This document shows positions 5,049-32,000 of a stretch of DNA of 32,000 nt, one piece after another. The notes beneath the pieces are model-generated. The model was given only the letters and a program-made list of their open reading frames with translations. It was not told the DNA's origin and searched no databases. Position numbers and translations under genes: made by a program. Origin of the DNA: an uncultured archaeon (GTDB taxonomy: Archaea; Asgardarchaeota; Thorarchaeia; Thorarchaeales; Thorarchaeaceae); NCBI GenBank assembly GCA_964648855.1, contig CAZYLT010000015.1, positions 1 through 32,000 of the forward strand. Reading direction: 5' to 3'. The first letter of the stretch is position 1. The number at the start of each line of letters is the position of its first letter.

Positions 5049-5585
5049 TCATGAACGTCGAGTTGAAGCCTCATGACAAGACGCGGCAGCATGAAAGAAC
5101 AACTCACTGACATTAGTACCTTCCTTCGCACTAGTTTCGAAGTATTTTAGTGAGAGGATACTCGCTAGATTCTCCACTTCTTTCTTGGAAACATCTCTTC
5201 GCGCCTCCAAGTCAATCTTGTTGGCAACAAGAGACCCCGGTATTGTCATTGCTCCGGAGATACAGACACTCTCAGCCAGATTATCAAACCATTCTGGGAT
5301 GTCGTCGAACGTTGCTCGTTCAGTGACATCAAAAACGAGAATTACATGATGAGATCCCGCATAGAATCTATTCCGGAGAGCTGCAAAGGAATGCTGTCCA
5401 CCTAGATCGACGACACTGAGTACAACCTTGCCTTCAGGAAATTCGAAACTGGCAATGTTCATGCCTACACCGACAGTTGCAGTATAGGATTCGTTGAAAT
5501 CATCTCTCAAGTATCGTTGAATGAGAGAGGTCTTGCCTACATTTCGAGGGCCCATGACCAGTGTTTTGTAGACTTGCGCAGTCAT
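5049..5585 (-). CDS. Ras-superfamily small GTPase (Rab-like, Asgard type)
   Basis: G1 GPRNVGKTS, G2 YTATVG, G3 DLGGQ, G4 NKID, G5 ETSAK. Start at 5585 (MTAQVYK) is more typical than the 5630 in the track. No C-terminal prenylation motif. Confidence 0.93.
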   Translation of the reverse strand: MTAQVYKTLVMGPRNVGKTSLIQRYLRDDFNESYTATVGVGMNIASFEFPEGKVVLSVVDLGGQHSFAALRNRFYAGSHHVILVFDVTERATFDDIPEWFDNLAESVCISGAMTIPGSLVANKIDLEARRDVSKKEVENLASILSLKYFETSAKEGTNVSELFFHAAASCHEASTRRS

Positions 5586-5749
5586 CGAATTCAAATCCAA
5601 GAAAGCTTTCAGATATGTACTCTCCTTCATGGCAACGGTACCTTATAATTCATTCACGAACAAACGTTAATCTATCGAATGGCCCCTTGAATTGGCCTTC
5701 TTATGGGTATGAAAACGCTTTAGTGCATGCTCCGGTTAAAGGTATGATT

Positions 5750-8479: not shown

Positions 8480-8631
8480 TACATCAATTCAAAGCTTTCG
8501 CATGCTGAAAAGTTTAGTTGTCACAAGGTCAGGAAGGGATAGACATTGTTTTTGAGCAAGTTTTGGCGAATTCAATGATTCTACTCAAAGAATAAATGAG
8601 GGTATTTCCCACTCCACATCGGAGATTAGTC

Positions 8632-10218
8632 ATGATGGAATTAGATACCTCAATATCCAAAGTCACAGTATTCAGAAATGGAGCTAGAGTGACAAGAGCA
8701 GGTTCAGTGGAAGTAGAACCTGGGGATCTAAAGATTAGAGTTGGTGAGATATCTTCCTCAGCAATTGAAGATAGTTTCCGTGTTGATGGACGTGGGAAGG
8801 CACACATTGTCGCCCTTGACGTACAAAGAAAGGATCGAGTGTTTGAACCCGAAAAGGATATTGAACATATCTATTCCAGATTAAAGGAGTTGCGGCGAAG
8901 GCTGATAGCACTAGATGACGAAATAGAAATTGAAAATCTGAAAATCTCCAGCATGCAGCAGTTATTGGATGATTTTTCAGAAACCTATGGTACTATTTTG
9001 GCAGCAAATGAAACGGATATTTCCCAGCTGGAGAATATCGACTCTAAGAGTTCAGAAGTGAAATCCAAAGCGAGGAAGAAGCTGAGAGATTTGAGCAAAA
9101 AGCAGCGGGATATTCAAACGGAAATTGAGATATTGGAAGCAGAGATTGGAAAAATCAACAGTGAACGAAGAACAGAGACATTCTATGATGTAGATATAGA
9201 TTTGGAGGCTGAAGAAAAAGGAACCATTCAGCTCGAACTCGCTTACCAGACGGCTAGTGCGAGCTGGACCCCAAGTTATGATATCAATGTTGGACGGGAC
9301 TCATGCATAATAAGAAGAATGGGTCTTATCCGCAATAGTACTGGGGAGGTTTGGAAAGACATAGGCTTAAGGGTATCAACAGCGACAGCTACACCTGCAC
9401 ATGCAATAGAAGGCACTCCTCTGTATATAACAGCATATGACCCTGAAGCCATTAGGGCTAGAAAGGAAAGAGCAAAAAGAAGTATGAGAAGGGCACCAGC
9501 TGCCGCCGCTGAACCGGCACCTTTAGAGGAATCGGCTGGAGCTCCCCCTCCAAGTCCACCGCCTGAGTTAGAGGAAACCTTTGCTGAATCTAGTGAAACA
9601 GTATCGGGAATTTCAGTTTATGACGTACCAGATGCCATATCAATTCCATCTGACGGAAACAAGCATCCTGTTGCTTTGTCGGAAGAAGAGCTGGATTCGT
9701 TAACAACATACTTCTGGTATGCCGATGAGATGGCATATGTTGTTGCGCAGAACGAAGTGACAAACGGATCTCACTTGATTTTGCCAGGCGAGGCGAAAGT
9801 CTATGAGGAAAATGATTTGGTGGGCGAAACAACAATTCCACAAATAGCCCCGCGTGAGAAGTTCAAGATTGGCACCAGAATTGCGAACAAAGTTAAGGGG
9901 GAGAAGAAACTCGTAAAGAAGCAGATTCAGAAATCAGGGTTAGCTAGAGGGAAAATTCAACAGAACTATGGATATACTCTAAGCCTTGAGAATTTTGCAG
10001 AGAGGACGATCAAGGTTACTGTAAAGGATAGAATTCCGCATAGTTTCAACCCATCAATAGAAATTGAGATTCTGGACACAGAGCCCAAACCAAAGACATC
10101 AGAACTTGGCATTCTTGAATGGGAATTGGAGATGGAAGAGGGAGCCTCCAAATCAATCGAATACGGGTACAAAGTGACGTGGGAGAAGGAAACGGTCATT
10201 GTGCCCCCGTTGCCATAG
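8632..10218 (+). CDS. DUF4140/DUF4139 domain protein (MuiA/TIGR02231-like), paralogue 1
   Basis: ISKVTVFRNGARVTR, DSFRV, long coiled coil, ASWTPSYDI, NSTGEVW..LRVSTA, VKDRIP, GILEWEL. Start likely 8632/8635. Confidence 0.88.
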   Translation: MMELDTSISKVTVFRNGARVTRAGSVEVEPGDLKIRVGEISSSAIEDSFRVDGRGKAHIVALDVQRKDRVFEPEKDIEHIYSRLKELRRRLIALDDEIEIENLKISSMQQLLDDFSETYGTILAANETDISQLENIDSKSSEVKSKARKKLRDLSKKQRDIQTEIEILEAEIGKINSERRTETFYDVDIDLEAEEKGTIQLELAYQTASASWTPSYDINVGRDSCIIRRMGLIRNSTGEVWKDIGLRVSTATATPAHAIEGTPLYITAYDPEAIRARKERAKRSMRRAPAAAAEPAPLEESAGAPPPSPPPELEETFAESSETVSGISVYDVPDAISIPSDGNKHPVALSEEELDSLTTYFWYADEMAYVVAQNEVTNGSHLILPGEAKVYEENDLVGETTIPQIAPREKFKIGTRIANKVKGEKKLVKKQIQKSGLARGKIQQNYGYTLSLENFAERTIKVTVKDRIPHSFNPSIEIEILDTEPKPKTSELGILEWELEMEEGASKSIEYGYKVTWEKETVIVPPLP

Positions 10219-10230
10219 GAGTGGATACTG

Positions 10231-11787
10231 ATGATAGAGTGTGAAACAAAAATCGACAGAGTGATTGTATTCCGAGATGGAGCCAAGGTCACGCGAATTG
10301 GCAAAATAGACTTGAAACCTGGACAGCACACCGTTAGGGTTGGCAATATCTCCAAGTATGCAGAAAAAGATAGTTTCCGCGTGAAGGGCAAGGGTCATGC
10401 CAGATTGAAAAGCGTCGATGCTAAAAAAGTGACCAAGACATTCGAGCCTAAGAATGAGATAGGAGAATTGAGGAAGGAGTTGGATTCGCTTGAAGAAGAG
10501 AAGAAAGGCATTGTTGATAGGATATCGACTCAACAAGAAAGGGTGAAGTACCTCAGAGATATCTTGGGGCATTTCTCTAGCGAATTCGGTAAATGGCATC
10601 CGCTCAAAGATACGCCTCTTGAAACATTGGAGAAGAGCCAGAGCTTTATCATAAATGCACTTGGAGAAGCTAAGAAGAAAATACGAGACTTAGGGTATGA
10701 GTTGGAAGATGTTGAAGCTAAAATCCACGCAGTCAATGCTAATATCAATAGGGTGGGAGCAGCAAGAAGAACTGAAACAGAAACAATGGTCCGGATTTTG
10801 TTCGAAGCCGCTACGGAAACTTCTGTAAATTTGGAGATATCCTACGTACACAAATTCGCCCAGTGGGAACCTGTATATGATATCGACCTCACTGATGAAA
10901 AGGCTACAGTCAAAAGAATCGCCAATGTTCTCAATCAAAGCCTAGAAGATTGGATTGATACGGACCTAACAGTTTCAACAGCATCAATGCGACCTGTGCA
11001 GGCAATCCAACCTCAACCGTACTATGTCGATGTTGCTACTAGAGCATATGAAGCTGCACCACCCAGAACTGACAAGGCAGGATTTGGGATGGCAAGAGAA
11101 ACCTCGCTGATGGACGTGTCGGTTAGTGATGATACATTGAGACCAAAATATGCAGAAGCCTCTCAAACGTTAGGAGGTATCGTGCAGTATGACATACCTG
11201 GAAGGTTAACTGTTCTATCCGATGTTGATTCGAGCCCCGTAACGCTGACAAAAGAAGAACTCTCATCTCAGCTCATTTACTTCTGGAATGCATATGCCAT
11301 GGCAGAACCAGTAGCCCAAAATGAGGTCAAAATTGGCAATTCGATGCTCTTACCTGGAAAGGCAAGGATTTACGAGGATGGCGATTTCATTGGGGAAACA
11401 ACAATGGATATCGTCGCACCGGGCGAAAAGATAGCAATTGGCACAAGAGTTACATATGATGTCAAATGCGAAAAAATCCTGAAGACAAAGGAAACTGAGA
11501 AGGCAGGTTTGACTAGAGGGAACACCCGCCGCGAATACAGATATGAACTAAAAATTAATTCATACGCAAAGAGAGAGAGACCAATTCGAGTAGTAGATAG
11601 GATTCCCCACAGCTCATCAGAGAAGGTTGATGTGGAGCTTAAGCAGTCTGATCCCTTCCCAGAAAAGCAGGAACTAGGAGTCTTGGAGTGGCATTTGGAG
11701 GTCCAGCCAAATGAGGAATTTGTATTGTCATACAGTTTTGAGGTGGAGTGGGAGAAAGGATTGAAGCTGAGACCGTCTCTGCCCTAA
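10231..11787 (+). CDS. DUF4140/DUF4139 domain protein, paralogue 2
   Basis: IDRVIVFRDGAKVTR, DSFRV, coiled coil, AQWEPVYDI, NQSLEDW..LTVSTA, VVDRIP, GVLEWHL; 12 nt after paralogue 1 with SD GGAG. Confidence 0.88.
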   Translation: MIECETKIDRVIVFRDGAKVTRIGKIDLKPGQHTVRVGNISKYAEKDSFRVKGKGHARLKSVDAKKVTKTFEPKNEIGELRKELDSLEEEKKGIVDRISTQQERVKYLRDILGHFSSEFGKWHPLKDTPLETLEKSQSFIINALGEAKKKIRDLGYELEDVEAKIHAVNANINRVGAARRTETETMVRILFEAATETSVNLEISYVHKFAQWEPVYDIDLTDEKATVKRIANVLNQSLEDWIDTDLTVSTASMRPVQAIQPQPYYVDVATRAYEAAPPRTDKAGFGMARETSLMDVSVSDDTLRPKYAEASQTLGGIVQYDIPGRLTVLSDVDSSPVTLTKEELSSQLIYFWNAYAMAEPVAQNEVKIGNSMLLPGKARIYEDGDFIGETTMDIVAPGEKIAIGTRVTYDVKCEKILKTKETEKAGLTRGNTRREYRYELKINSYAKRERPIRVVDRIPHSSSEKVDVELKQSDPFPEKQELGVLEWHLEVQPNEEFVLSYSFEVEWEKGLKLRPSLP

Positions 11788-19798: not shown

Positions 19799-20923
19799 AT
19801 GCCAGAGGATGCTGATGACTATATTCTCAGGATAGAAGACCTAAGTGCTGCCTATACGTCAAAGCGTGGATTAGTACATGCTGTGAATGATGTATCATTT
19901 GGCATCAGGAGAGGCGAATCGGTGGGTCTCTTTGGAGAATCCGGCGCTGGCAAGTCTTCTGTGGCACTGGCAATATTGGGCATATTTGAGAAGACAGCCA
20001 AATTTGGTTCAGCATCAGGCGACAAAGAAAACAAGAGGCTTTGGGAACTACGAGAGAAAGCTCGCAAAGAGGGCAAGACTTCCAATGACATTGGAGAGAT
20101 GCTACCGGGAGTTGAAGGTCACATCTGGTACAAAGGAGAGGACTTGCTCGCCCTCGATGAAGAAGCGTTCAGGAAAATTAGAGGAAATGATATTACGTAC
20201 GTTCCTCAAGGCACAATGCAGTCATTGAATCCATATACAAACATACAACTGCAGACAGCCGAGTCTCTATGGGCTCATGATGATGAAAGCGTTCTTTATG
20301 AGAGAGAGGTTCTTAGACGGGTACTCCAAGCGCTGGACCTTGTAGAGATTGGAGATATAGACATTCGCAAGGCCTTGAAACCGAAGGAATTCAGCATGGG
20401 TGAAGACCAGCGAGTTCTGATTGCCATGGCACTCATAATGCAACCTGAGATTCTCATAGCAGATGAACCAACAACAGCGCTAGATGTTGGAGTTCAAGGG
20501 CGAATTATGGATGCTATCAATCTTGTTCGTGAGAAGCTCGATTTGACTATGCTCCTCATTACTAATGACCAAGGTCTCATGGCGGAAACTGCAGATCGAA
20601 TAGCTGTCATGTCGGCAGGACGAATAATGGAATTCGCAGACGCAGAGACAATTCTGAAAAACCCAGGCCACCCATTTACGAGGGCATTTCTCATGAGCAA
20701 TCCATCAATGGAAATAATACGCAGAATCAGGGAGAAGGGATTGATTCTCCGTGGAATCCCAGGAAATCCTCCTGACATGACAAACCCACCAACTGGCTGT
20801 CCCTTCCACACGCGATGCCAGTACAAGAAAGACATCTGTGTCGAACAAGTCCCTGAGTACCGTGAAGTAGAAGACGATCACTGGATATTCTGTCATCGAT
20901 ATGAAGAGCTCCCTGAATTCTAG
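19799..20923 (+). CDS. Orphan OppD/DppD-like ABC ATPase with degenerate signature and H-loop
   Basis: Walker A GESGAGKS, Walker B LIADEPT, signature FSMGEDQR, H-loop ITND, C-terminal HPF..GCPFHTRC..C..C. Confidence 0.9.
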   Translation: MPEDADDYILRIEDLSAAYTSKRGLVHAVNDVSFGIRRGESVGLFGESGAGKSSVALAILGIFEKTAKFGSASGDKENKRLWELREKARKEGKTSNDIGEMLPGVEGHIWYKGEDLLALDEEAFRKIRGNDITYVPQGTMQSLNPYTNIQLQTAESLWAHDDESVLYEREVLRRVLQALDLVEIGDIDIRKALKPKEFSMGEDQRVLIAMALIMQPEILIADEPTTALDVGVQGRIMDAINLVREKLDLTMLLITNDQGLMAETADRIAVMSAGRIMEFADAETILKNPGHPFTRAFLMSNPSMEIIRRIREKGLILRGIPGNPPDMTNPPTGCPFHTRCQYKKDICVEQVPEYREVEDDHWIFCHRYEELPEF

Positions 20924-21150
20924 TGAGAACAAATCGTGTATTCTCATTCACTAAGACATAGATTTCGATAATTTGAGCATTAATTCAAGAAGGCATTCAA
21001 GACGTTGACTTCCTGCAGCCCGAGTTGAAATGAAAATAAGTTCTGACTAATTGGGTGCCTTGAACACCGATTCTTCTCTTTAAGACATGTAGACAAGGGA
21101 CTTAAAGACTCCTTTCTTCATCTGATGGCTATGTAATAGGTGAAGTATAG

Positions 21151-22197
21151 ATGAACAATGAAACCCATAACTCAGGGGAATACGTCAAGGCCGAACCACC
21201 ACACCTGTGGATGGGCTTCACAAAGAACAAGTTAATGTTCAGAACGTTTCTATCCATGTCATTCATTGCCCTCGCATCTGTCATTGTGATGGGGCTTGAT
21301 GCCCTCTTTCACATTATGATTTCAGTCGTCACCGTTATTCTAGTGCATGGTCTGATATTCTACTATCAGGTCTGGCGGGGAATGAAACCAACGTACAAAT
21401 CACCGAGTTCGCCGATGGTTGCAGGATTAGTAGTCGGATTAGCTATGCCCATCAGCAGTCCGTTTCTAGTCACTGCTGTCGTGGCTTTGATTGCAATTCT
21501 GGTGTTCAAGTATGGACAGGGAGCCGTTCTTGACAGGAAATACCTCAACCCTGCTGCAGCATCGAAGACACTGCTTCTCATTCTGCTCTCACTCATGATT
21601 TTCTTGGAAGACTCTCTTGACATTGGAATGTTGTTTCATCCACACCATCTCAGCCTAGACCTTCTGAGTGCTGAAGGCTTTCAAGATTCGATGTGGATTT
21701 TCAGTGGTAAGGTACTGCCGATTCTTGGTATTGAGCTCTCACCCGCGCAGGCTCTTGTGATCTGGCAAACCCATGGCTGGATTGGCGGCGCAAGTGGAAT
21801 TGTCGTACTCATTGTAGGTGCGATAGCTGCATACTGGCTCAAATTCAAGTGGCGTATCATAATATCTACTCTGACAACAATGACAGTGCTAGCGGCAATT
21901 ACTGGACTGGCTCTGGGAGGAGACCCCCTCTTGCGGATCGCATTTCATGTCTTCACAGGAAGCGTCATCTTCATGACCTTCTTTATGGCAACTGAACCTC
22001 AGTCAACGCCCATGACCGAAATAGCTCAGGTTATCTTCGGCATCACACTTGCCCTACTGACCTTTGTATTGCAGATCCTTAATGTCTTGGGAGGATCTAT
22101 TATCGCCTTGCTAATTCTTAACCTAGCAACGCCAAGCCTAGACAAAATCAGAATTAAGAAACCCTATGGACTAAGAGGAACCGATGGAGAGAGCTAG
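21151..22197 (+). CDS. rnfD: RnfD/NqrB-family membrane protein (atypical)
   Basis: PPH, G..LAMP, NPAA, FFMATEPQSTP, LILNLATPSLD motifs; about 9-10 TM; SD GGTGA at 21139-21143. Confidence 0.85.
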   Translation: MNNETHNSGEYVKAEPPHLWMGFTKNKLMFRTFLSMSFIALASVIVMGLDALFHIMISVVTVILVHGLIFYYQVWRGMKPTYKSPSSPMVAGLVVGLAMPISSPFLVTAVVALIAILVFKYGQGAVLDRKYLNPAAASKTLLLILLSLMIFLEDSLDIGMLFHPHHLSLDLLSAEGFQDSMWIFSGKVLPILGIELSPAQALVIWQTHGWIGGASGIVVLIVGAIAAYWLKFKWRIIISTLTTMTVLAAITGLALGGDPLLRIAFHVFTGSVIFMTFFMATEPQSTPMTEIAQVIFGITLALLTFVLQILNVLGGSIIALLILNLATPSLDKIRIKKPYGLRGTDGES

Positions 22198-22199
22198 CG

Positions 22200-23522
22200 A
22201 TGAAAACCAACGACAGACCTGTAGGCGAGTTCGTGGAGAAGGGAGGCTTCAAAATGGACTTGTCCATGAAGAGGGATGCAGTGAATTCCCCCTTCACATC
22301 CGTTGCGCCAGCAGAGAAGATGGTTGTCTTTCTTCGCCAGCATATTGGACCTGAGACTAAGCCTTTAGTTGAAGTGGGGCAGGAGGTCCTCTACGGACAG
22401 AAGATTGGGGATGATTCAAGCGGTGGACCATTGGTTGTTCCCGTACATAGCCCAGTAAATGGACAGATTATTGCCTTGACGGAGCGAATCCATCCAGAAT
22501 CGGGCAGGAAAGAGAAGGCTTTCATAATAGAAACCAATAAGCAGGAACGGAAACCGTACTACGAGCCTATAAATCCGGATGATGTCACAAACGAGGAGTT
22601 ACAGGAGCGTGTAAGAGAGGCCGGTTTGGTAGGTCTGGGTGGGGCTGCATTCCCGACTCATGTCAAATTATCTCCAGAAGGGACGATAACGCATCTCCTC
22701 ATCAATGCAAAGGAAAGCGACGTCAACATAGCATGCGATTCACGCCTGATGGTCGAAAAGCCTGATGGAATAATAACCGGAATCAAGCTGATGGCTCAGA
22801 TACTTGAAGCAGATAATGTCCTTTTTGCCACAAGAACAAAGGAGGGTGAGATTCCTGGCTTCGAGAAAATGCTGAGCGAGGAGGACATCCCCATTATACG
22901 AGTTAGACGTAGCTATTCGGTTGGTAGCGAGAAGCTTCTCATAAAGGAGGTTCTGAACAAAGAAGTCCCATCTGGAAAATATCCACCAGACATTGGTGTT
23001 GTGGTTCATAACATATCCACCGCCCATGCTGTTAAGCGTGCAATCATTGATGGGGAGTCGCTCGTTAGTAGAGGCTTAACTATGTATTCGAAAAAGACTG
23101 GAGGAAAGAATCTCTGGGTTCGAATGGGCACACCCGTCGAACATGTGCTACAATCAGTCGGAGTATCACCAAGCGAATTCGAGAGGATTGTGATTGGTTC
23201 CACAATGATGGGGCCCAGCATACCTAGTTCATCATATCCCATTTTGAAAGCGACCTCGGCAATTACTGCTTTCACACAAAACGAACCAGATCCGTACCAG
23301 CACCCATTGCCATGCATTCGCTGTGGCTACTGCAACACGGTTTGTCCAGTTGACATCTATCCTCAGATGATAATGGAGGCTGAGAAAGCAGGGGATACGA
23401 ACCGATTGAAGAAGCTACATGTTGAGGTATGTATCGACTGCGGACTCTGTTCGTACGTCTGCCCATCACGCATCAGGTTCACCCCATATTTGCAGAGAGG
23501 AAAGCAAAAGATTCGAGAGTGA
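22200..23522 (+). CDS. rnfC: RnfC-family soluble flavin/Fe-S oxidoreductase subunit
   Basis: LRQHIG, GQKIG, VHSPVNG, AGLVGLGGAAFPTHVK, GSTMMG, CIRCGYCNTVCP and CIDCGLCSYVCPS. Confidence 0.92.
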   Translation: MKTNDRPVGEFVEKGGFKMDLSMKRDAVNSPFTSVAPAEKMVVFLRQHIGPETKPLVEVGQEVLYGQKIGDDSSGGPLVVPVHSPVNGQIIALTERIHPESGRKEKAFIIETNKQERKPYYEPINPDDVTNEELQERVREAGLVGLGGAAFPTHVKLSPEGTITHLLINAKESDVNIACDSRLMVEKPDGIITGIKLMAQILEADNVLFATRTKEGEIPGFEKMLSEEDIPIIRVRRSYSVGSEKLLIKEVLNKEVPSGKYPPDIGVVVHNISTAHAVKRAIIDGESLVSRGLTMYSKKTGGKNLWVRMGTPVEHVLQSVGVSPSEFERIVIGSTMMGPSIPSSSYPILKATSAITAFTQNEPDPYQHPLPCIRCGYCNTVCPVDIYPQMIMEAEKAGDTNRLKKLHVEVCIDCGLCSYVCPSRIRFTPYLQRGKQKIRE

Positions 23523-23822
23523 TAAGAACGCTCTGACAATAACACTTGGCAATTGGGTGATGTGACTCAAGAATTCCCACCCTCCAAGTAGAACCAAGAG
23601 ATTTCCATCGGAATCCTAGGGCGTATATGAGATGCTCTGAAAATACAGGGCGTGATAAAACCGCTAAGAGTATCGAAATTTCGCCTCCGTAGGAATTCCC
23701 TGCAATTCCTCAGATCTCCGGAGATGCAGTTGGACTTACATAGATAAACCCCTTCTGCTTTCTGCCCATTAGAATCCAGCATGAAGTTTGTAGGTCAATA
23801 TTCCTATGCTGCAATGAGAGCC

Positions 23823-24362
23823 TCAACTAATCTGGTCTATGAAACCATCTACTATCGCCGCGACTGAGTCAACTGCACGTGCCCAATTGTCAATATCCTC
23901 TTCGGGAAGCGGAGGAGCCCCAGCCAAATATCTGAACTTGGCGATCTGCCCAGAGTGATATATTCCATGCATGTATGTCCTAAGCAGAGCCCATGCTACG
24001 GATGGACCTTCTGCTGGTGATGGAGGAATAATGAGGAGTTGTTCTTTGCTGCATCTTTGAAGCACATCAAGAATCTTCTCTGAGTTCTCCCTCAATTTCC
24101 CAAGCATATCCTTTGGCTTCTTGGTGTCAGGCCTAGAACCAATTCCATGCTTGCTTCTGTAAAACCAGTATGTTTCGGAGGACGCAATATGTTCGAGAAG
24201 AATGAAAATACTAGACTGCTCTTCGTCGGGTATTACCCTCCTCAAAATTTGCTCATCGGTTAATCCGGCAATCATTCGTTCTAGATGATTTCTCTGATTT
24301 CGATGAGCTTCAGCAAGCATTGTTCTGAACCACTCTTCTTGCATATCTTTCCACACTTCCAT
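23823..24362 (-). CDS. DinB/YfiT-like four-helix metal-binding protein
   Basis: GLTDEQ, SIFILLEHIASSETYW, HGIYHSGQI His triad. Confidence 0.85.
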   Translation of the reverse strand: MEVWKDMQEEWFRTMLAEAHRNQRNHLERMIAGLTDEQILRRVIPDEEQSSIFILLEHIASSETYWFYRSKHGIGSRPDTKKPKDMLGKLRENSEKILDVLQRCSKEQLLIIPPSPAEGPSVAWALLRTYMHGIYHSGQIAKFRYLAGAPPLPEEDIDNWARAVDSVAAIVDGFIDQIS

Positions 24363-24369
24363 CGTTACC

Positions 24370-25548
24370 CTAGTCTTTGTCAGGCTTCTCTCTCGTCAAT
24401 TGGATGAGTTCATATTCCCGCAAACCCAGCTTCATCTTGTCAGCATGGGCCATCTGAATATCAGCAAGAGGGACAATCTCACCAGAATCTGGGTCTTTAC
24501 AGGCATGAGCAGTAGCGAACTTCTGCTGGCATTCTTCGTCACCAATCGGGGATGCTGGATTAGTGGGAGCTTCATTTATTGCATCCAGAGATGCTTGGTC
24601 TGTAGCCAAAGGGTCTCTTGACCCGAAAATGCCAATATCATGGACTAGTAATGGCGCGCCAACATTCCAGCAGTCGCACTTGTCAGAAATATCCATTGCG
24701 AGATTGATGTACCAAAACTTGTCACGTCCGACCGAATCAATCACACCAACCGCATTTTCAACAAATCTATAGACTTGTGTATGATTCGGACGCCAGCTCA
24801 TCGAAATAGCCTTTGCTTCTACGCGATTGCAGACGTGAATGCAGTGATAACATGCGATGCACTCGTTCTTGTCGATAGAAGCTTTCTCATCCATTGATAT
24901 GCATCTCACCGGGCAGACCTTTAGGCACTTTGAACATTCGGAACCTAGGCATTTCTCCTCGTCTAATTCAATATCGCCCATCCAATGCATCTCAGCTTTG
25001 CCCCTTTTACCTACTAGTCCAATTCCCAAATTCTTGATAGACCCACCCAGCCCTCCTAGACCATGTCCTTTTGCATGTGTGAGCATCAGGATTTTGTCAC
25101 AGTCAAGAACAGCTGTAGCTACATCCACCTTCTTGACATATTCACCGTCTATCTCGACATCAAAGACATCTGTACCCCAATAACCATCTGCCATTAGAAT
25201 AGGCGCCCCAACTGTTCCCTGGGTATAGCCATTGAGTTCTGCCATAGCGAGATATTCCGGAGCAGTGGTTCGGCCTCCATAAATACCACCTTCACCATAG
25301 CCAAGTCCACACGATTCGCATACAAACGGGATGCCTCCCGCTTCATGTATTAGCTCGACTGCTTTGCGAACATAAGCAGGACGAATGTAGTTAGTATTGC
25401 CCCACTGCCCAAAATGGGTCTTGACCATTACCTTTTCGCCTTCGTCAATTGCATCCAAGAATCCCATTTCTGTAAGAACATGTTCCAGCTTGTCGAGCAT
25501 GTTGTAGTGAGACTCTGCGTTTCTGTCTGAAAAGTACACCTTGCTCAT
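24370..25548 (-). CDS. DUF362 family protein with inserted 4Fe-4S dicluster (ferredoxin) domain
   Basis: SKVYF, VKTHFGQ.GN...IRP, THAKGH..GGSIKNLGIG, CSKCLKVCP / CIACYHCIHVC, CDC, DIGI..S.DP.A.DQAS. Confidence 0.9.
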   Translation of the reverse strand: MSKVYFSDRNAESHYNMLDKLEHVLTEMGFLDAIDEGEKVMVKTHFGQWGNTNYIRPAYVRKAVELIHEAGGIPFVCESCGLGYGEGGIYGGRTTAPEYLAMAELNGYTQGTVGAPILMADGYWGTDVFDVEIDGEYVKKVDVATAVLDCDKILMLTHAKGHGLGGLGGSIKNLGIGLVGKRGKAEMHWMGDIELDEEKCLGSECSKCLKVCPVRCISMDEKASIDKNECIACYHCIHVCNRVEAKAISMSWRPNHTQVYRFVENAVGVIDSVGRDKFWYINLAMDISDKCDCWNVGAPLLVHDIGIFGSRDPLATDQASLDAINEAPTNPASPIGDEECQQKFATAHACKDPDSGEIVPLADIQMAHADKMKLGLREYELIQLTREKPDKD

Positions 25549-25674
25549 TCTAAACCCTATCAGATGAAGAACATTCTATGTATAAAGGATTACGAAGGGA
25601 GCCCACAAAGGACCAAGGTCTGCTTTATCAACATTGTTTTAATGTGAAGATTACTGAGTCTGGAATTGAGTATC

Positions 25675-26754
25675 ATGTCTGATGAAGAAATCATACTTCA
25701 TGTTGAAAACCTTAGAGCTTACTATCCATCCAAAGAAGGCTTGATAAAAGCTGTCGATGATGTATCATTTGACGTAAGGAAGGGGGAGTCAGTAGGAATT
25801 TTGGGCGAAAGCGGGTGTGGGAAAAGCTCACTTGCGCTAGCCATAATGGGGCTCTTTGATAAGATGGCAAGATTTCGAGCAGGGTCATCAAACGTACCGG
25901 GTCTGTTGAAGGAGTTCGAGAAGAGGGGGAATGAGACCCCAGGCACGAGTGGCACAGTCATCTTCAGAAATCACGATATGTTAAATGCCCCTTACGAAGA
26001 CCTTTCGAAAATAAGGGGAAAAGAGATTGCAATGATTCCCCAAGGACTCACACATGCATTGAACCCACAGTACTCTATAGGGATGCAAACTGGAGAACCG
26101 ATTGAGATCCACGATGAGAATGTGCGTCTGTTAGAAATGAAAAAGAAAGTCTTAGATTTTCTCAATTTAGTCAGCTTGGCAGATGCTGACACTCGGTTTG
26201 TATTAGACCCTGGCAGTTTCAGCGGCGGAGAGGCTCAAAGAGTTCTCATTGCCATGTCATTGATATCTGGGCCGTACCTCGTGATTGCAGATGAACCAAC
26301 CAGTGCGCTAGACGTCACGATTCAAAGGCAGATAATGAACGTCCTCCAGATGGTAAAGGAGGAATTCGACGTGTCTACCATCATGATTAGCCATGACGCA
26401 GGGGTTATTGCAGAGGTTTCAGATAGAATCGCAATAATGTACGCTGGAAAAATAATGGAGCTGGGGGATGCTGTTCAGATATACCACAATCCGGGTCATC
26501 CTTACACAATGGGCTTGATGGCATCATTCCCAACAATTGCTATGATGCGGATGAGGGAAGGAGGTTCACGTCCAAAGCTTAGAGGAATTCGAGGCGAACC
26601 GCCAGATCCACGCAATATTCCAGAAGGATGTCCATTCCATCCCCGCTGCGATTTTGCAGAAGAAAAGTGTCAGGAAAACATTCCGGAATATAGGGAAGTT
26701 GAGTCAGGGCATTGGATTAGATGCATTCGTTATGAGGAAATTCAAAAAGAATAG
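25675..26754 (+). CDS. Orphan OppD/DppD-like ABC ATPase
   Basis: GESGCGKS, FSGGEAQR, IADEPT, ISHD, HPYT, GCPFHPRC..C..C; start 25666 (TTG) or 25675 (ATG). Confidence 0.92.
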   Translation: MSDEEIILHVENLRAYYPSKEGLIKAVDDVSFDVRKGESVGILGESGCGKSSLALAIMGLFDKMARFRAGSSNVPGLLKEFEKRGNETPGTSGTVIFRNHDMLNAPYEDLSKIRGKEIAMIPQGLTHALNPQYSIGMQTGEPIEIHDENVRLLEMKKKVLDFLNLVSLADADTRFVLDPGSFSGGEAQRVLIAMSLISGPYLVIADEPTSALDVTIQRQIMNVLQMVKEEFDVSTIMISHDAGVIAEVSDRIAIMYAGKIMELGDAVQIYHNPGHPYTMGLMASFPTIAMMRMREGGSRPKLRGIRGEPPDPRNIPEGCPFHPRCDFAEEKCQENIPEYREVESGHWIRCIRYEEIQKE

Positions 26755-29322: not shown

Positions 29323-30363
29323 CTATGCTTTGGCTTTTTCTTTTTCGCCCATGGCGTCTGCATAGGTTTGTTGAGCGCTTGAACCAAAGTCCAATTCTCC
29401 AGCAAAGTGACAAGCAACAAGGTGTCCATCACCCATATCACGCAGCTCAGGCTGATTGGTTTCACAGATATCTTCGGCGAATATACAGCGCGGATGAAAT
29501 CTGCAACCCGTGGGAGGACTAATCGGACTGGGTACCTCACCACTCAGAATCTGAGCCTTACCAGCAAACTTGGGATTCGGAATAGGAACAGCTGATACGA
29601 GAGCAAATGTGTACGGATGTAATGCGCCTCTGAAAATGTCATGGGGAGTAAGCTCAACAATCTGTCCCAAATACATCACAGCTATTCGATCGCTCATGTG
29701 TTTCACAACACTCAAGTCGTGTGAGATGAACATGTATGTGAGGTTCAATTCCTCCTGAAGGTCCTTCATTAAGTTCAGCGTCTGTGCCTGAACAGACACA
29801 TCCGTACTAGATGTGGGTTCATCCATTACGACAAACTTCGGATTCAGTGCAAGTGCGCGAGCAATGCAGATTCGCTGGCGCTGCCCACCACTGAATTCGT
29901 GAGGAAAACGATTGAGGTGGTCCTCAGTCAATCCTACTTTCTGCAACAAGTCCAGAACTATTCGTCTCATTTCAGGGCCCTTTGCAATCCCGTTGACAAC
30001 AAGTGGCTCCCCTACTGAATTCTTTATGGTAAGTCGGGGATCTAGAGACGCCATGGGGTCCTGAAAAACTATCTGCATCTCTCTGCGGATTTTTCTCAGA
30101 TCTCGACCACTGATTTCTGAGATGTCCTCTCCCTCAAAAATGATCTGCCCTTCTGTAGGTTCAATCAGTCGGAGAACAGTTCGTCCAAGTGTTGTCTTGC
30201 CACAGCCGCTCTCTCCCACTATACCCATTGTTTCGCCTGTTCTGATGTCCATATCTACACCATCGACGGCGTGAACCTGTCCAATGACCTTTCTGAAGAC
30301 TCCACCAGTAAGTGGGAAATACTTCTTGAGCCCTCGAACTTTGAGCAATATATTATCTGACAT
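29323..30363 (-). CDS. oppF: Oligopeptide/dipeptide ABC transporter ATP-binding subunit OppF/DppF
   Basis: LKKYFP, VHAVDGV, GESGCGKT, FSGGQRQRI, MDEPT, ISHDL, HPYT, GCRFHPRC. Confidence 0.93.
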   Translation of the reverse strand: MSDNILLKVRGLKKYFPLTGGVFRKVIGQVHAVDGVDMDIRTGETMGIVGESGCGKTTLGRTVLRLIEPTEGQIIFEGEDISEISGRDLRKIRREMQIVFQDPMASLDPRLTIKNSVGEPLVVNGIAKGPEMRRIVLDLLQKVGLTEDHLNRFPHEFSGGQRQRICIARALALNPKFVVMDEPTSSTDVSVQAQTLNLMKDLQEELNLTYMFISHDLSVVKHMSDRIAVMYLGQIVELTPHDIFRGALHPYTFALVSAVPIPNPKFAGKAQILSGEVPSPISPPTGCRFHPRCIFAEDICETNQPELRDMGDGHLVACHFAGELDFGSSAQQTYADAMGEKEKAKA

Positions 30364-30378: not shown

Positions 30379-31536
30379 TTATTTGAGTGGATGATGGCAT
30401 GCAACCCAATGCTCAGGCGCCAGCTCCATTAGGTGGGGCTTTTCCCTACTGCATACTTCAGTGGCATATTCGCATCTCGGGTGAAATCGACAGCCTGATG
30501 GAGGTGCGATGAGATTGGGAACACTTCCAAGAATCTGAGGCAGACGTTCTTTTTCTTCGTGCAATTTGGGAACTGCTATTAATAATCCAGCGGTGTAGGG
30601 ATGCAAAGGATTATTGAACAACTCCTTGGTTGCACATGTTTCTACCGTAGTTCCTGCATACATTACATTGGTCCAGTTACAGGTCTCCGCAACGACGCCC
30701 ATATCATGTGTAATGATGATTATTGATGTTCCAATTTCCTTCTTCAACTCATTCAGCAGATGCAGCACTTGTGCTTGAACAGTGACATCGAGGGCAGTGG
30801 TCGCCTCATCTGCTATGAGGACGCTAGGATTACAAGCCAATGCCATTGCGATGAGCGCTCTCTGTCGCATTCCGCCAGACAACTCATGTGGATACTGATC
30901 AATGACCTGTTCAGGAGCAGGCATCTTGGCTAGTTTAAGCATCTCCACTGCTCGCTTCTTGGCAGCCTTCTTTGCATCTTTTTCATCAGGCTCAGGCGGA
31001 TCATCAAGCTTGGATTCATAATACTGGATTTTTTCTTTGATTTTAAGTTCCCTCTCACCTCCTACATCTTCCTTCAGAGAATTCTCCAACTCTTCAATTT
31101 TCATCTCTATGACATCACGACTCAAGTCCTGATGCATTTGAATGACTTCCGCAATCTGCTCGCCAACCCTGAACACAGGATTCGGATATGTTGCGGGATC
31201 TTGGAAGACGATGGCAATCTTGCCACCCCTGATATCGAGCATTTCCTCGGGGCTTAAGCTGAGAATATCTACTGGTTCTTCTTTGCTTCCATTATCCGTC
31301 CTCGGACTGAACCAGACTTTTCCATCATCAATCTTCCCAGGAGGCTCAACAATTCGAAGGATGGATCTTGCGGTCACAGATTTCCCACAGCCCGTCTCTC
31401 CCACAAGACCCATAGTATCGCCACGTCGTAGAAACATCTCTACGCCATCGAGGGCTTTTACGATTCCTTCATACGTGTAGAAGTTCGTTTCGAGGTTCTT
31501 CACATGTAGGACTAGGTCCAAGTCTTCTATAGCCAT
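30379..31536 (-). CDS. oppD: Oligopeptide/dipeptide ABC transporter ATP-binding subunit OppD/DppD with helical insertion
   Basis: GETGCGKS, LSGGMRQR, IADEATT, ITHD, HPYT, GCRFHPRC. True start MAIEDL at 31536, 1 nt after the oppC stop. Confidence 0.93.
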   Translation of the reverse strand: MAIEDLDLVLHVKNLETNFYTYEGIVKALDGVEMFLRRGDTMGLVGETGCGKSVTARSILRIVEPPGKIDDGKVWFSPRTDNGSKEEPVDILSLSPEEMLDIRGGKIAIVFQDPATYPNPVFRVGEQIAEVIQMHQDLSRDVIEMKIEELENSLKEDVGGERELKIKEKIQYYESKLDDPPEPDEKDAKKAAKKRAVEMLKLAKMPAPEQVIDQYPHELSGGMRQRALIAMALACNPSVLIADEATTALDVTVQAQVLHLLNELKKEIGTSIIIITHDMGVVAETCNWTNVMYAGTTVETCATKELFNNPLHPYTAGLLIAVPKLHEEKERLPQILGSVPNLIAPPSGCRFHPRCEYATEVCSREKPHLMELAPEHWVACHHPLK

Positions 31537-31537
31537 G

Positions 31538-32000
31538 CTATCGCCTCCGAATTCGGGGATCCATAATATCGCGTATCCCATCTCCCACGAGATTGAATGC
31601 AAGCGCCACGAACAAGATGGCGAATCCAGGGAAGAAGACCGCCCAAGGAGCAATCATGAAGAAGTTCTGAGCCTTGGAGATCATCAAACCCCATTCAGCT
31701 ACTCCCGCTCTTGGTCCAAAGCCAATAAAGGCAAGACCTGCCGCAACAAGTAGTACTGAACCTGTATCCATTGTTGCTTGGACTATGAGAGGTTGAATTG
31801 TGTTTGGAATAATATGATAGGCCAAGATGCGGCCATCCGTTGCACCAACAGACCTAGCAGCTTCAACATAGAGTTTTTCGCGCTCGCCGAGGACTTGACC
31901 CCTCACCAAACGCGCATATGACGGCCACCATGTCACCATCAAAGCCAGAGAGATGCTTTGCAAACTTCGCTCACCAAGTGCCATTACGATGGCCATAGCA
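31538..32000 (-). CDS. oppC: Oligopeptide ABC transporter permease OppC/DppC (3' part only)
   Basis: WPSYARLVRGQ, EAA motif YVEAARSVGA, AEWGLMI, FNLVGDGIRDIMDPR. Confidence 0.93.
   Translation of the reverse strand, partial: AMAIVMALGERSLQSISLALMVTWWPSYARLVRGQVLGEREKLYVEAARSVGATDGRILAYHIIPNTIQPLIVQATMDTGSVLLVAAGLAFIGFGPRAGVAEWGLMISKAQNFFMIAPWAVFFPGFAILFVALAFNLVGDGIRDIMDPRIRRR

Follow-up and report, generated by a model that had tools for sequence, protein, structure and literature searches.

Canonical Rnf and Nqr complexes are six-subunit redox pumps, and in Rnf the flavin mononucleotide (FMN) attached to a Thr of RnfD passes electrons on to RnfG. The ion path of Rnf is carried by RnfA/E, and RnfD was described by Kumar et al. 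2025 as an electron conduit only (PMC11889175). A partial version of these complexes has also been published, a two-subunit NQR/RNF-like system in which an RnfD/NqrB-like subunit devoid of the flavinylation Thr is fused to an NqrF-type PF00175 domain and is accompanied by a flavinylated RnfG-like partner and ApbE; one-way transfer between NAD(P)H and the outside has been proposed for it, and its hosts are Actinobacteria, the Candidate Phyla Radiation and Chloroflexi (Meheust et al. 2021, PMC8238504; Huang et al. 2024, PMC10979944). Here we analyzed an RnfD–RnfC gene pair located in a window of 32,000 nt (positions 1 to 32,000 of contig CAZYLT010000015.1, the whole stretch of DNA examined) from a metagenome-assembled genome (MAG) of Thorarchaeota, an Asgard lineage (3.11 Mb, 62 contigs, completeness 94.6%). 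With middling confidence, we read this pair as a 'half-Rnf' sufficient in itself, in which the NAD(H) arm of the complex operates without RnfA, RnfB, RnfE, RnfG and ApbE and serves as an NADH-driven electron sink.

Compared with the Rnf complex (7ZC6, 8AHX, 9ERI), the pair retains the domains and cofactor motifs of RnfC, the ten-helix transmembrane fold and riboflavin ligands of RnfD, and the predicted docking of the RnfD arm. It differs in standing without RnfA, RnfB, RnfE, RnfG and ApbE, in the loss of the equivalents of the flavinylated Thr, E185 and N90, in the gain of a five-His cluster, in its gene order (D then C) and in its RnfD score (TIGR01946, 78.6 bits, under the cut-off of 207). 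The pair is likewise homologous to NqrA–NqrB (RnfC to NqrA, RnfD to NqrB), where the riboflavin of NqrB hands electrons to the final acceptor; in contrast, NqrA is cofactor-free, NqrB keeps its covalent FMN and uses ubiquinone or menaquinone as acceptor, and the RnfD-like protein reaches only 48.1 bits with the NqrB equivalog model (cut-off 414). By feature comparison with published descriptions, the nearest precedent is the two-subunit 'Nqr/Rnf-like' system of bacteria, equally a partial Rnf/Nqr with an RnfD-like membrane domain lacking the flavinylation Thr. Unlike that system, the pair uses a separate RnfC carrying FMN and two [4Fe-4S] clusters, shows no PF00175 fusion, FMN_bind protein or ApbE, and resides mainly in Asgard and Thermoplasmatota archaea. 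The proposal of an earlier first-pass annotation, made from the sequence of the window, that this is an undescribed membrane-anchored oxidoreductase therefore stands for the input module and the partners, but not for the two-subunit, Thr-less architecture, which had been published (PMC8238504, PMC10979944). A 2025 review of RNF and NQR makes no mention of a stand-alone RnfCD. New here are the residue mapping, the clade uniting the pair with fused relatives, the neighbour statistics and the negative co-distribution tests.

The two genes form a compact unit on the + strand. The RnfD-like gene (21151..22197) encodes a 348-residue protein with ten transmembrane helices of an FMN-less subfamily (PF03116, E 9.8e-36; ~100 orthologs), and is followed after 2 nt by the RnfC gene (22200..23522), whose 440-residue product comprises a barrel-sandwich amino-terminal domain, a NuoF-like FMN/NAD(H) domain and a carboxy-terminal 2x[4Fe-4S] domain. 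Upstream lies a gap of 227 nt (20924–21150) with GGTGA, read from the sequence as a putative Shine-Dalgarno-like motif (21139..21143, +), 7 nt before the RnfD-like ATG; downstream, a 71-residue open reading frame (23567–23782) and then DinB (23823–24362) run convergently. All coordinates on which the first-pass annotation had based a self-contained operon were verified, and the motifs that it quoted were all found, namely FHPHHLSLDLLSAEGF (residues 162–177), GWIGGAS and ATEP in the RnfD-like protein as well as GLGGAAFPT, NAKESDV and two CxxCxxCxxxCP motifs in RnfC.

Profile searches of the source genome yielded one PF03116 and one RnfC_N match, both at this locus, and no match to PF02508 (RnfA/E), PF04205 (FMN_bind), PF02424 (ApbE) or PF04060 (the amino-terminal Fe-S domain of RnfB), while control genomes gave matches with the same models. 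In eight further carrier genomes (three Thorarchaeota, one other archaeon and four Thermoplasmata), PF02508, PF04205 and PF02424 were equally without a match, and every PF03116 match among the carriers was of the FMN-less type, one carrier containing three copies and another two. Across ~60 loci, genes of these three families stood beside the pair in none. MAG incompleteness cannot plausibly explain nine of nine carriers without the other subunits. These searches bear out the first-pass view that the pair lacks rnfA/E/G, extending it to apbE and to nine carrier genomes, with the RnfB signature domain absent from the source genome, and that the pair is not a six-subunit ferredoxin:NAD+ ion pump; the finding named there as refuting, missing subunits turning up elsewhere, did not occur. 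With RnfA/E missing, we expect no ion pumping by the canonical route.

To locate the cofactor sites, we mapped the residues of the RnfD-like protein by HMMER alignment to the C. tetanomorphum RnfD (7zc6_D), and also to 9eri_D, taking residue roles from PMC9588780. PF03116 is the sole domain of the protein, with no fused PF00175 NAD-binding domain, and its score of 124 bits compares with 270–360 bits for canonical RnfDs. The AlphaFold (AF2) model reached a predicted local distance difference test (pLDDT) score of 90.2 and a predicted TM-score (pTM) of 0.88; its best fold matches were the RnfD chains 9eri_D, 8ahx_D and 7zc6_D (A. woodii, A. vinelandii, C. tetanomorphum), with a TM-score of ~0.7 to RnfD, followed by NqrB. 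At the outer site, the canonical D-A-x-[ST]-G-A-T-P-L aligns to LDLLSAEGF and the flavinylation site reads SAEG. Thr153, the covalent FMN attachment point of the canonical protein, is absent in this alignment, and the flavinylation motif was detected in 0 of 100 orthologs, establishing as a family-wide trait the loss that had been noted in this one protein. Glu185 of 7zc6_D and the canonical Asn90, both of the outer FMN/Na+ site, align to G213 and M99, respectively; the former substitution is the Glu lost in the change from GSIGETS to GWIGGAS, as the first-pass annotation had it.

The inner pocket is preserved. Canonical RnfD binds riboflavin through N123 (A. woodii) or N124 (C. tetanomorphum) and through D249/D248 (PMC11889175, PMC9588780), and the A. 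woodii mutants N123A and D249A are inactive (PMC11889175). The Asn ligand corresponds to the invariant Asn133 (21547..21549, +) in the alignment to 9eri_D and 7zc6_D, and the Asp ligand to Glu282, a conservative replacement that is invariant among the orthologs, is Asp in fused relatives, and lies within the invariant block FFMATEPQSTP (residues 277–287; 21979..22011, +). Five His are specific to the family. Three belong to the HPHH motif (residues 163–166; 21637..21648, +) in the linker between the five-helix halves, the canonical flavinylated Thr lying ~10 residues further on; H166 is invariant and H163 and H165 are conserved to at least 90%, confirming across the family the motif highlighted in the first-pass annotation. 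The fourth, the invariant His208 (21772..21774, +), is part of HGWIGGAS (canonical G-x-I-G-E-T-S) in the equivalent of the occlusion loop, and the fifth, the invariant His266 (21946..21948, +), occupies the short outer-side helix that precedes helix VIII and aligns to E232 of 7zc6_D. The linker, the occlusion-loop equivalent and the helix preceding helix VIII, and with them the five His, probably surround the former outer FMN pocket. The protein contains no Cys, and therefore cannot hold an Fe-S cluster.

RnfC, in contrast to its partner, passed the family model (TIGR01945, 389.7 bits, cut-off 245.95) and matched solved RnfC chains over its full length with E values of 1e-59 to 1e-66 (8ahx_C, 4.7e-66; 7zc6_C, 4e-65). 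Its NuoF-like FMN/NAD(H)-binding domain (residues 138–279; 22611..23036, +; PF01512, E 5e-37) is the sole Complex1_51K match in the genome. The motifs VGLGGAxFPTH and INAKESDPNxACD are kept across 38 partner RnfCs, and all eight cluster ligands of the di-cluster ferredoxin domain (residues 366–424; 23295..23471, +; Fer4 family matches), Cys 372/375/378/382 and 411/414/417/421, are invariant, so that the reported retention of the FMN/NADH and Fe-S motifs is upheld. An assignment as NqrA (equivalog score 60 bits, cut-off 450) or as PrdC (TIGR04481, 141.5 bits, cut-off 490, with no reductase genes nearby) was not obtained.

A model of the complex, built from family alignments of both chains, predicted binding of the two proteins with an ipSAE of 0.82, compared to 0.01 for the best control; at least 89% of the contacts agreed between runs, and the partner pLDDT was at least 80. 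In the calibration, 58 of 80 solved complexes attained the docking threshold, compared with 2 of 110 mismatched pairs. The predicted interface is formed by the amino-terminal cytoplasmic arm of the RnfD-like protein, by the invariant EPQSTP loop just after E282 and by the carboxy terminus, all facing the RnfC di-cluster domain, which contributes most of the surface. The arm (residues 10–28; 21178..21234, +) bears a conserved PPH with an invariant P17, is predicted to insert into RnfC and provides residues 10–25 and 27–28, and RnfD-like residues 283–284, 286 and 288–289 touch RnfC residues 374 and 387 in the model. Canonical Rnf docks alike, with the amino-terminal arm of RnfD inserted into RnfC (PMC9588780); since the mode is the same, the pass may partly reflect memory of solved Rnf complexes. 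The model thus shows that the docking surfaces are retained, and binding as such is a prediction.

The RnfD-like orthologs, ~100 at 41–86% identity, occur in Thorarchaeota, Promethearchaeia/Lokiarchaeota, Thermoplasmatota and Bipolaricaulaceae, and their alignment contains 44 invariant columns; beyond this set similarity falls sharply, to E 1e-10. Dereplication of 90 loci at 90% identity left 38 lineages of the RnfD-like protein. The downstream gene encodes RnfC in 36 of the 36 dereplicated lineages that have one, and six lineages carry a second RnfC paralog. Measured against the closest unsaturated relative, the ratio of nonsynonymous to synonymous substitution rates (dN/dS) is 0.158 for the RnfD-like gene and 0.138 for RnfC; both genes are under purifying selection. 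Given these ratios, the ~100 orthologs and the fixed gene order, the arrangement is no product of chance. The distribution is patchy: of 24 genomes sampled within the family, 3 have the pair, and of 16 from elsewhere in the phylum sample, none does. Such a pattern fits horizontal spread. Many of the metagenome matches come from soda-lake or hypersaline sediments. The second RnfC, seen after the first in the Thermoplasmata loci L013, L015, L031, L038, L042, L047 and L078, is often followed by an MsrQ-like protein with six transmembrane helices and a FAD-dependent HI0933-like protein (PF21688), and a hemA-sirC-cobA/hemD-hemC cluster lies divergently upstream in L028, L031, L038 and L042.

The nearest non-orthologous relatives (39–45% identity) are RnfD-like domains with carboxy-terminal fusions of three kinds, a di-cluster ferredoxin, a ferredoxin plus an FrhB/FdhB F420-type flavoprotein, and a ferredoxin plus a molybdopterin oxidoreductase; the searched literature holds no description of such fused proteins. 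In a FastTree phylogeny, drawn at the midpoint and with groupings meaning one side of a branch only, a branch with 100% support separated the orthologs and all fusions from the canonical RnfDs, and the molybdopterin/Fer4 fusions were the sister group of the D–C family with 99% support. The motifs HGWxGG and FMAT[DE]P are common to the pair and the fusions. They differ in that the input module of the fusions is covalently joined, in that HPHH survives only in part (the sister group reads FYPEH) and in operon partners, which for the fusions are NuoE/F-like proteins, a 6xFMN_bind protein and B12-radical-SAM genes. As the pair and the fusions make up one FMN-less clade, the membrane module pairs with interchangeable cytoplasmic redox input modules, of which RnfC is the unfused version. 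Long distant RnfD matches proved to be canonical RnfD–RnfG fusions and not PF00175 fusions.

One operon of the sister group combines an RnfD-like::NuoG/Fdh-like fusion, NuoE-like and NuoF-like proteins, a 245-residue Fe-S protein and an anchored 6xFMN_bind protein with five flavinylation motifs, and is a candidate for an NADH- or formate-driven electron-export system. The same operon is present in soda-lake sediment contigs (L058, 8773–17327; L065, 9932–18456; L082, 9932–18166), with an RnfD-like::ferredoxin::molybdopterin-oxidoreductase fusion of ~1128 residues. Separately, RnfD-like::ferredoxin fusions of ~450 residues in loci L083–L094 (e.g. L086, 5172–10680) are each followed by a protein of five transmembrane helices belonging to no known family; around them lie B12-binding radical-SAM genes, two to four in number, together with anchored Cys/His-rich proteins.

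Onto the gene content, motif pattern, conservation, predicted docking and clade relationship described so far, we place a mechanism whose cofactor occupancy, direction of flow and transmembrane step we infer. RnfC would lie on the cytoplasmic face, held by the amino-terminal arm and the EPQSTP loop of the RnfD-like protein. Hydride would be exchanged with NAD(P)H at the FMN of RnfC, and electrons would pass through its two [4Fe-4S] clusters to a non-covalent riboflavin-type flavin in the inner RnfD-like pocket, bound by N133 and E282. From there they would move to the rebuilt outer pocket, which has lost its covalent FMN, is presumably lined by the five conserved His and might contain a non-covalent flavin, a metal or salvaged heme, before leaving to an external or membrane-bound acceptor. 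For a fermenting archaeon, the result would be a one-way NADH-driven electron sink and not an ion pump. Onward transfer across the membrane through the His-lined pocket is the more tentative part of this scheme, favoured because related lineages have outward-facing neighbours, because the outer-side His are conserved and because RnfD is a pure electron conduit (PMC11889175). The role that the first-pass annotation proposed for the HPHH loop is tentative, and a flavin, a quinone or a metal would fit the present evidence alike as acceptor. It is possible, although rather doubtful, that the FMN-less RnfD-like clade as a whole is a modular, ApbE-independent transmembrane conduit, leading from varied inputs through the inner riboflavin and the outer His-lined site to extracytoplasmic acceptors. 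The inputs would then be a separate RnfC or fused ferredoxin, FrhB or NuoEFG/Fdh-like modules, the acceptors of some lineages would be DOMON/EB_dh-type heme proteins or multi-FMN proteins, and Asgard and Thermoplasmatota fermenters could use the conduit for NADH-driven export of reducing power to minerals, humics or syntrophic partners.

The outward-facing neighbours are of three types. A signal-bearing EB_dh protein (heme-b, DOMON-like), divergently transcribed, stands beside the pair in 4 lineages; a secreted protein, c5, tagged as DOMON in the database, in another 4; and a protein of six transmembrane helices that matches MsrQ faintly and has two H-x13-H pairs, both invariant, in 3 further lineages. 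Paired His of this pattern are the di-heme signature of ferric-reductase domains (PMC3591440). Together these neighbours cover 11 of 38 lineages, a theme that recurs in a minority, points outward across the membrane and is not universal. A homolog of the MsrQ-like protein, 50% identical to the operon version, is encoded in the source genome away from the pair (locus L100, G000:C13:52788-53399).

Several observations weigh against electron export through the rebuilt outer site. Among the lineages with enough flank to judge, only 4 of 15 have such a neighbour. The DOMON tag of c5 was not reproduced, as hmmscan at 1e-4 on a homolog returned no hit and hhalign against EB_dh proteins gave a probability of 0.4%; the Foldseek and VIA lists for c5 were dominated by its amino-terminal NTF2-like domain. 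No EB_dh, c5, c7 or FMN_bind homolog, and hence no extracytoplasmic redox partner, was found in the source genome. Among the relatives, the MsrQ-like gene tracks the pair only loosely (present in 3 of 4 carriers and in 5 of 37 non-carriers, one carrier being without it), which is suggestive only, related genomes being non-independent samples. The placement of the five His at the old FMN pocket has two sources, the 7zc6_D alignment and the description in that paper. Finally, HemA, HemC, HemD/CobA and SirC were not found in the source genome; with no tetrapyrrole synthesis genes and no ApbE, any cofactor at the outer site is restricted to a metal, a non-covalent flavin or heme obtained by salvage. 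Occupation of the His cluster by heme was first discounted for the missing HemA, HemC, HemD and SirC, and was reconsidered because the genome encodes the MsrQ-like protein with its ferric-reductase/MsrQ/YedZ-type H-x13-H pairs; with such a di-heme-type protein despite the missing synthesis genes, heme may be acquired by salvage in this organism. An obligate partnership with EB_dh was rejected, this protein being absent from the source genome and from all Thorarchaeota carriers.

Elsewhere in the source genome (G000:C3, ~111400–118000; L099, 5445–11941), a cluster encodes a protein of the geranylgeranyl-reductase (GGR) family, a polyprenyl diphosphate synthase, a MenA-like prenyltransferase (99.7 bits, cut-off 102), an HdrD/GlpC-like CCG Fe-S protein and a GlcD-like FAD oxidase. 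No futalosine (Mqn) pathway was found in this genome, and the combination hints at an unrecognized prenylated membrane carrier in Thorarchaeota. The MenA-like gene was rejected as a co-distributed partner, since it occurs in 21 of 24 family genomes and is absent from the carrier G012. The only complex-I-like module of the genome is a group-4 energy-converting [NiFe] hydrogenase (G000:C1, ~326000–335300), whose NuoD-like subunit has the motifs RxCGxCxxxH and DPCxxC and adjoins NuoH-like and large Mrp-like membrane subunits; with both NiFe motifs this is a hydrogenase, and a quinone-reducing complex I was discarded as evidence for a quinone pool.

If electrons did not cross the membrane, the pair could be a two-subunit, non-pumping NADH:quinone-type oxidoreductase that reduces a quinone or other lipophilic carrier at the inner site, much as in NQR, with the outer half serving a structural role. 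The riboflavin of NqrB does reduce ubiquinone directly (PMC12174285), the FrhB and NuoEFG/Fdh-like modules on sister domains are classic donors of quinone- or methanophenazine-reducing complexes, and the MenA-like gene lies beside a polyprenyl synthase, a GGR-family protein and an HdrD-like/GlcD-like pair. We nevertheless consider this improbable, as the futalosine pathway was not found, the MenA-like gene is present irrespective of the pair and missing from one carrier, the complex-I-like module is a hydrogenase and no quinone reductase, the match to NqrB is very weak, and five invariant or near-invariant outer-side His would be left unexplained. Less probable still is that the RnfD-like protein merely anchors or stabilizes RnfC, as suggested for NqrA–NqrB, while the Fe-S domain exchanges electrons with soluble ferredoxin or some other protein of the cytoplasm. 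The genome does encode no NuoF-type NADH module besides RnfC, a link between NADH and ferredoxin would be useful to an organism relying on ferredoxin-dependent group-4 hydrogenase chemistry, and RnfC-like proteins such as PrdC (the source of the TIGR04481 match) serve soluble reductases; but the PrdC score is far below its cut-off without reductase genes near, the complex model has RnfD covering the Fe-S domain, and the invariant riboflavin ligands and cluster-facing loop exceed the needs of an anchor.

That the pair is an ordinary Rnf whose other genes were missed, through divergence of small membrane proteins or through gaps in a genome that is 94.6% complete in 62 contigs, we regard as very unlikely: PF02508, PF04205 and PF02424 were found in 0 of 9 carriers with control genomes positive, no such genes adjoin the pair in ~60 loci, and the FMN by which RnfG would connect to the RnfD-like protein is missing from it. 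Equally slim are the chances that the RnfD-like protein has returned to a urea- or ammonium-transporter-like role as a redox-regulated channel, with RnfC as its NAD(H)-sensing regulator. Urea and Amt transporters do follow RnfD and NqrB among the fold matches, the outer cofactor site is lost and a His cluster gained, a P-type cation ATPase lies near some loci, and many carriers stem from soda-lake or hypersaline sediments. These transporter matches are weak, however (E > 1e-3, TM-score 0.3–0.44), the riboflavin ligands are kept, all fused relatives bear redox modules, and in A. woodii neither simulations nor mutants revealed an ion path through RnfD (PMC11889175). Decay of a former Rnf operon to a relic without present function would be in line with the occurrence in just 3 of 24 same-family genomes; intact frames with dN/dS of ~0.15, conservation of the pair at 45–86% identity with invariant motifs across Asgard, Thermoplasmatota and bacterial lineages, and several paralogous copies in some genomes effectively refute it.

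Purifying selection thus maintains a two-subunit piece of Rnf by itself in Asgard archaea, Thermoplasmatota and some bacteria, with its outer site rebuilt and no flavin transferase needed. Should the pair export electrons, the archaea most closely related to eukaryotes would have a new type of electron sink, linked to NADH and either extracellular or in the membrane; the exit of reducing equivalents from the cell is central to syntrophy models of eukaryogenesis. RnfD-like proteins would then also be a general membrane adaptor for several cytoplasmic dehydrogenase modules. Should it reduce a membrane carrier alone, it would be a minimal NADH dehydrogenase of new design. In either case, annotating such archaeal genes as evidence for an 'Rnf complex' misleads.

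The gene neighbours of the pair in the window are ABC ATPases, an amidohydrolase, DinB and a DUF362 protein. The latter (24370–25548, −) has an inserted di-cluster ferredoxin domain with 16 Cys and is common across the Thorarchaeota family; it was rejected as a partner, as it adjoins the pair in 4 loci but has orthologs in many non-carriers, and in genome G006 the true ortholog is on a different contig from the pair. Four OppD/OppF-like ABC ATPases (19799–20923, +; 25666–26754, +; 29323–30363, −; 30379–31653, −) have no adjoining permease or substrate-binding gene, and two of them flank the block of RnfDC, DinB and DUF362. Further away, the window encodes a Ras-family small GTPase (5049–5630, −; PF00071, E 2e-41), a typical Asgard 'eukaryotic signature' protein consistent with the Thorarchaeota origin, as well as tandem paralogs with DUF4140 and DUF4139 each (8596–10218 and 10231–11787, +).

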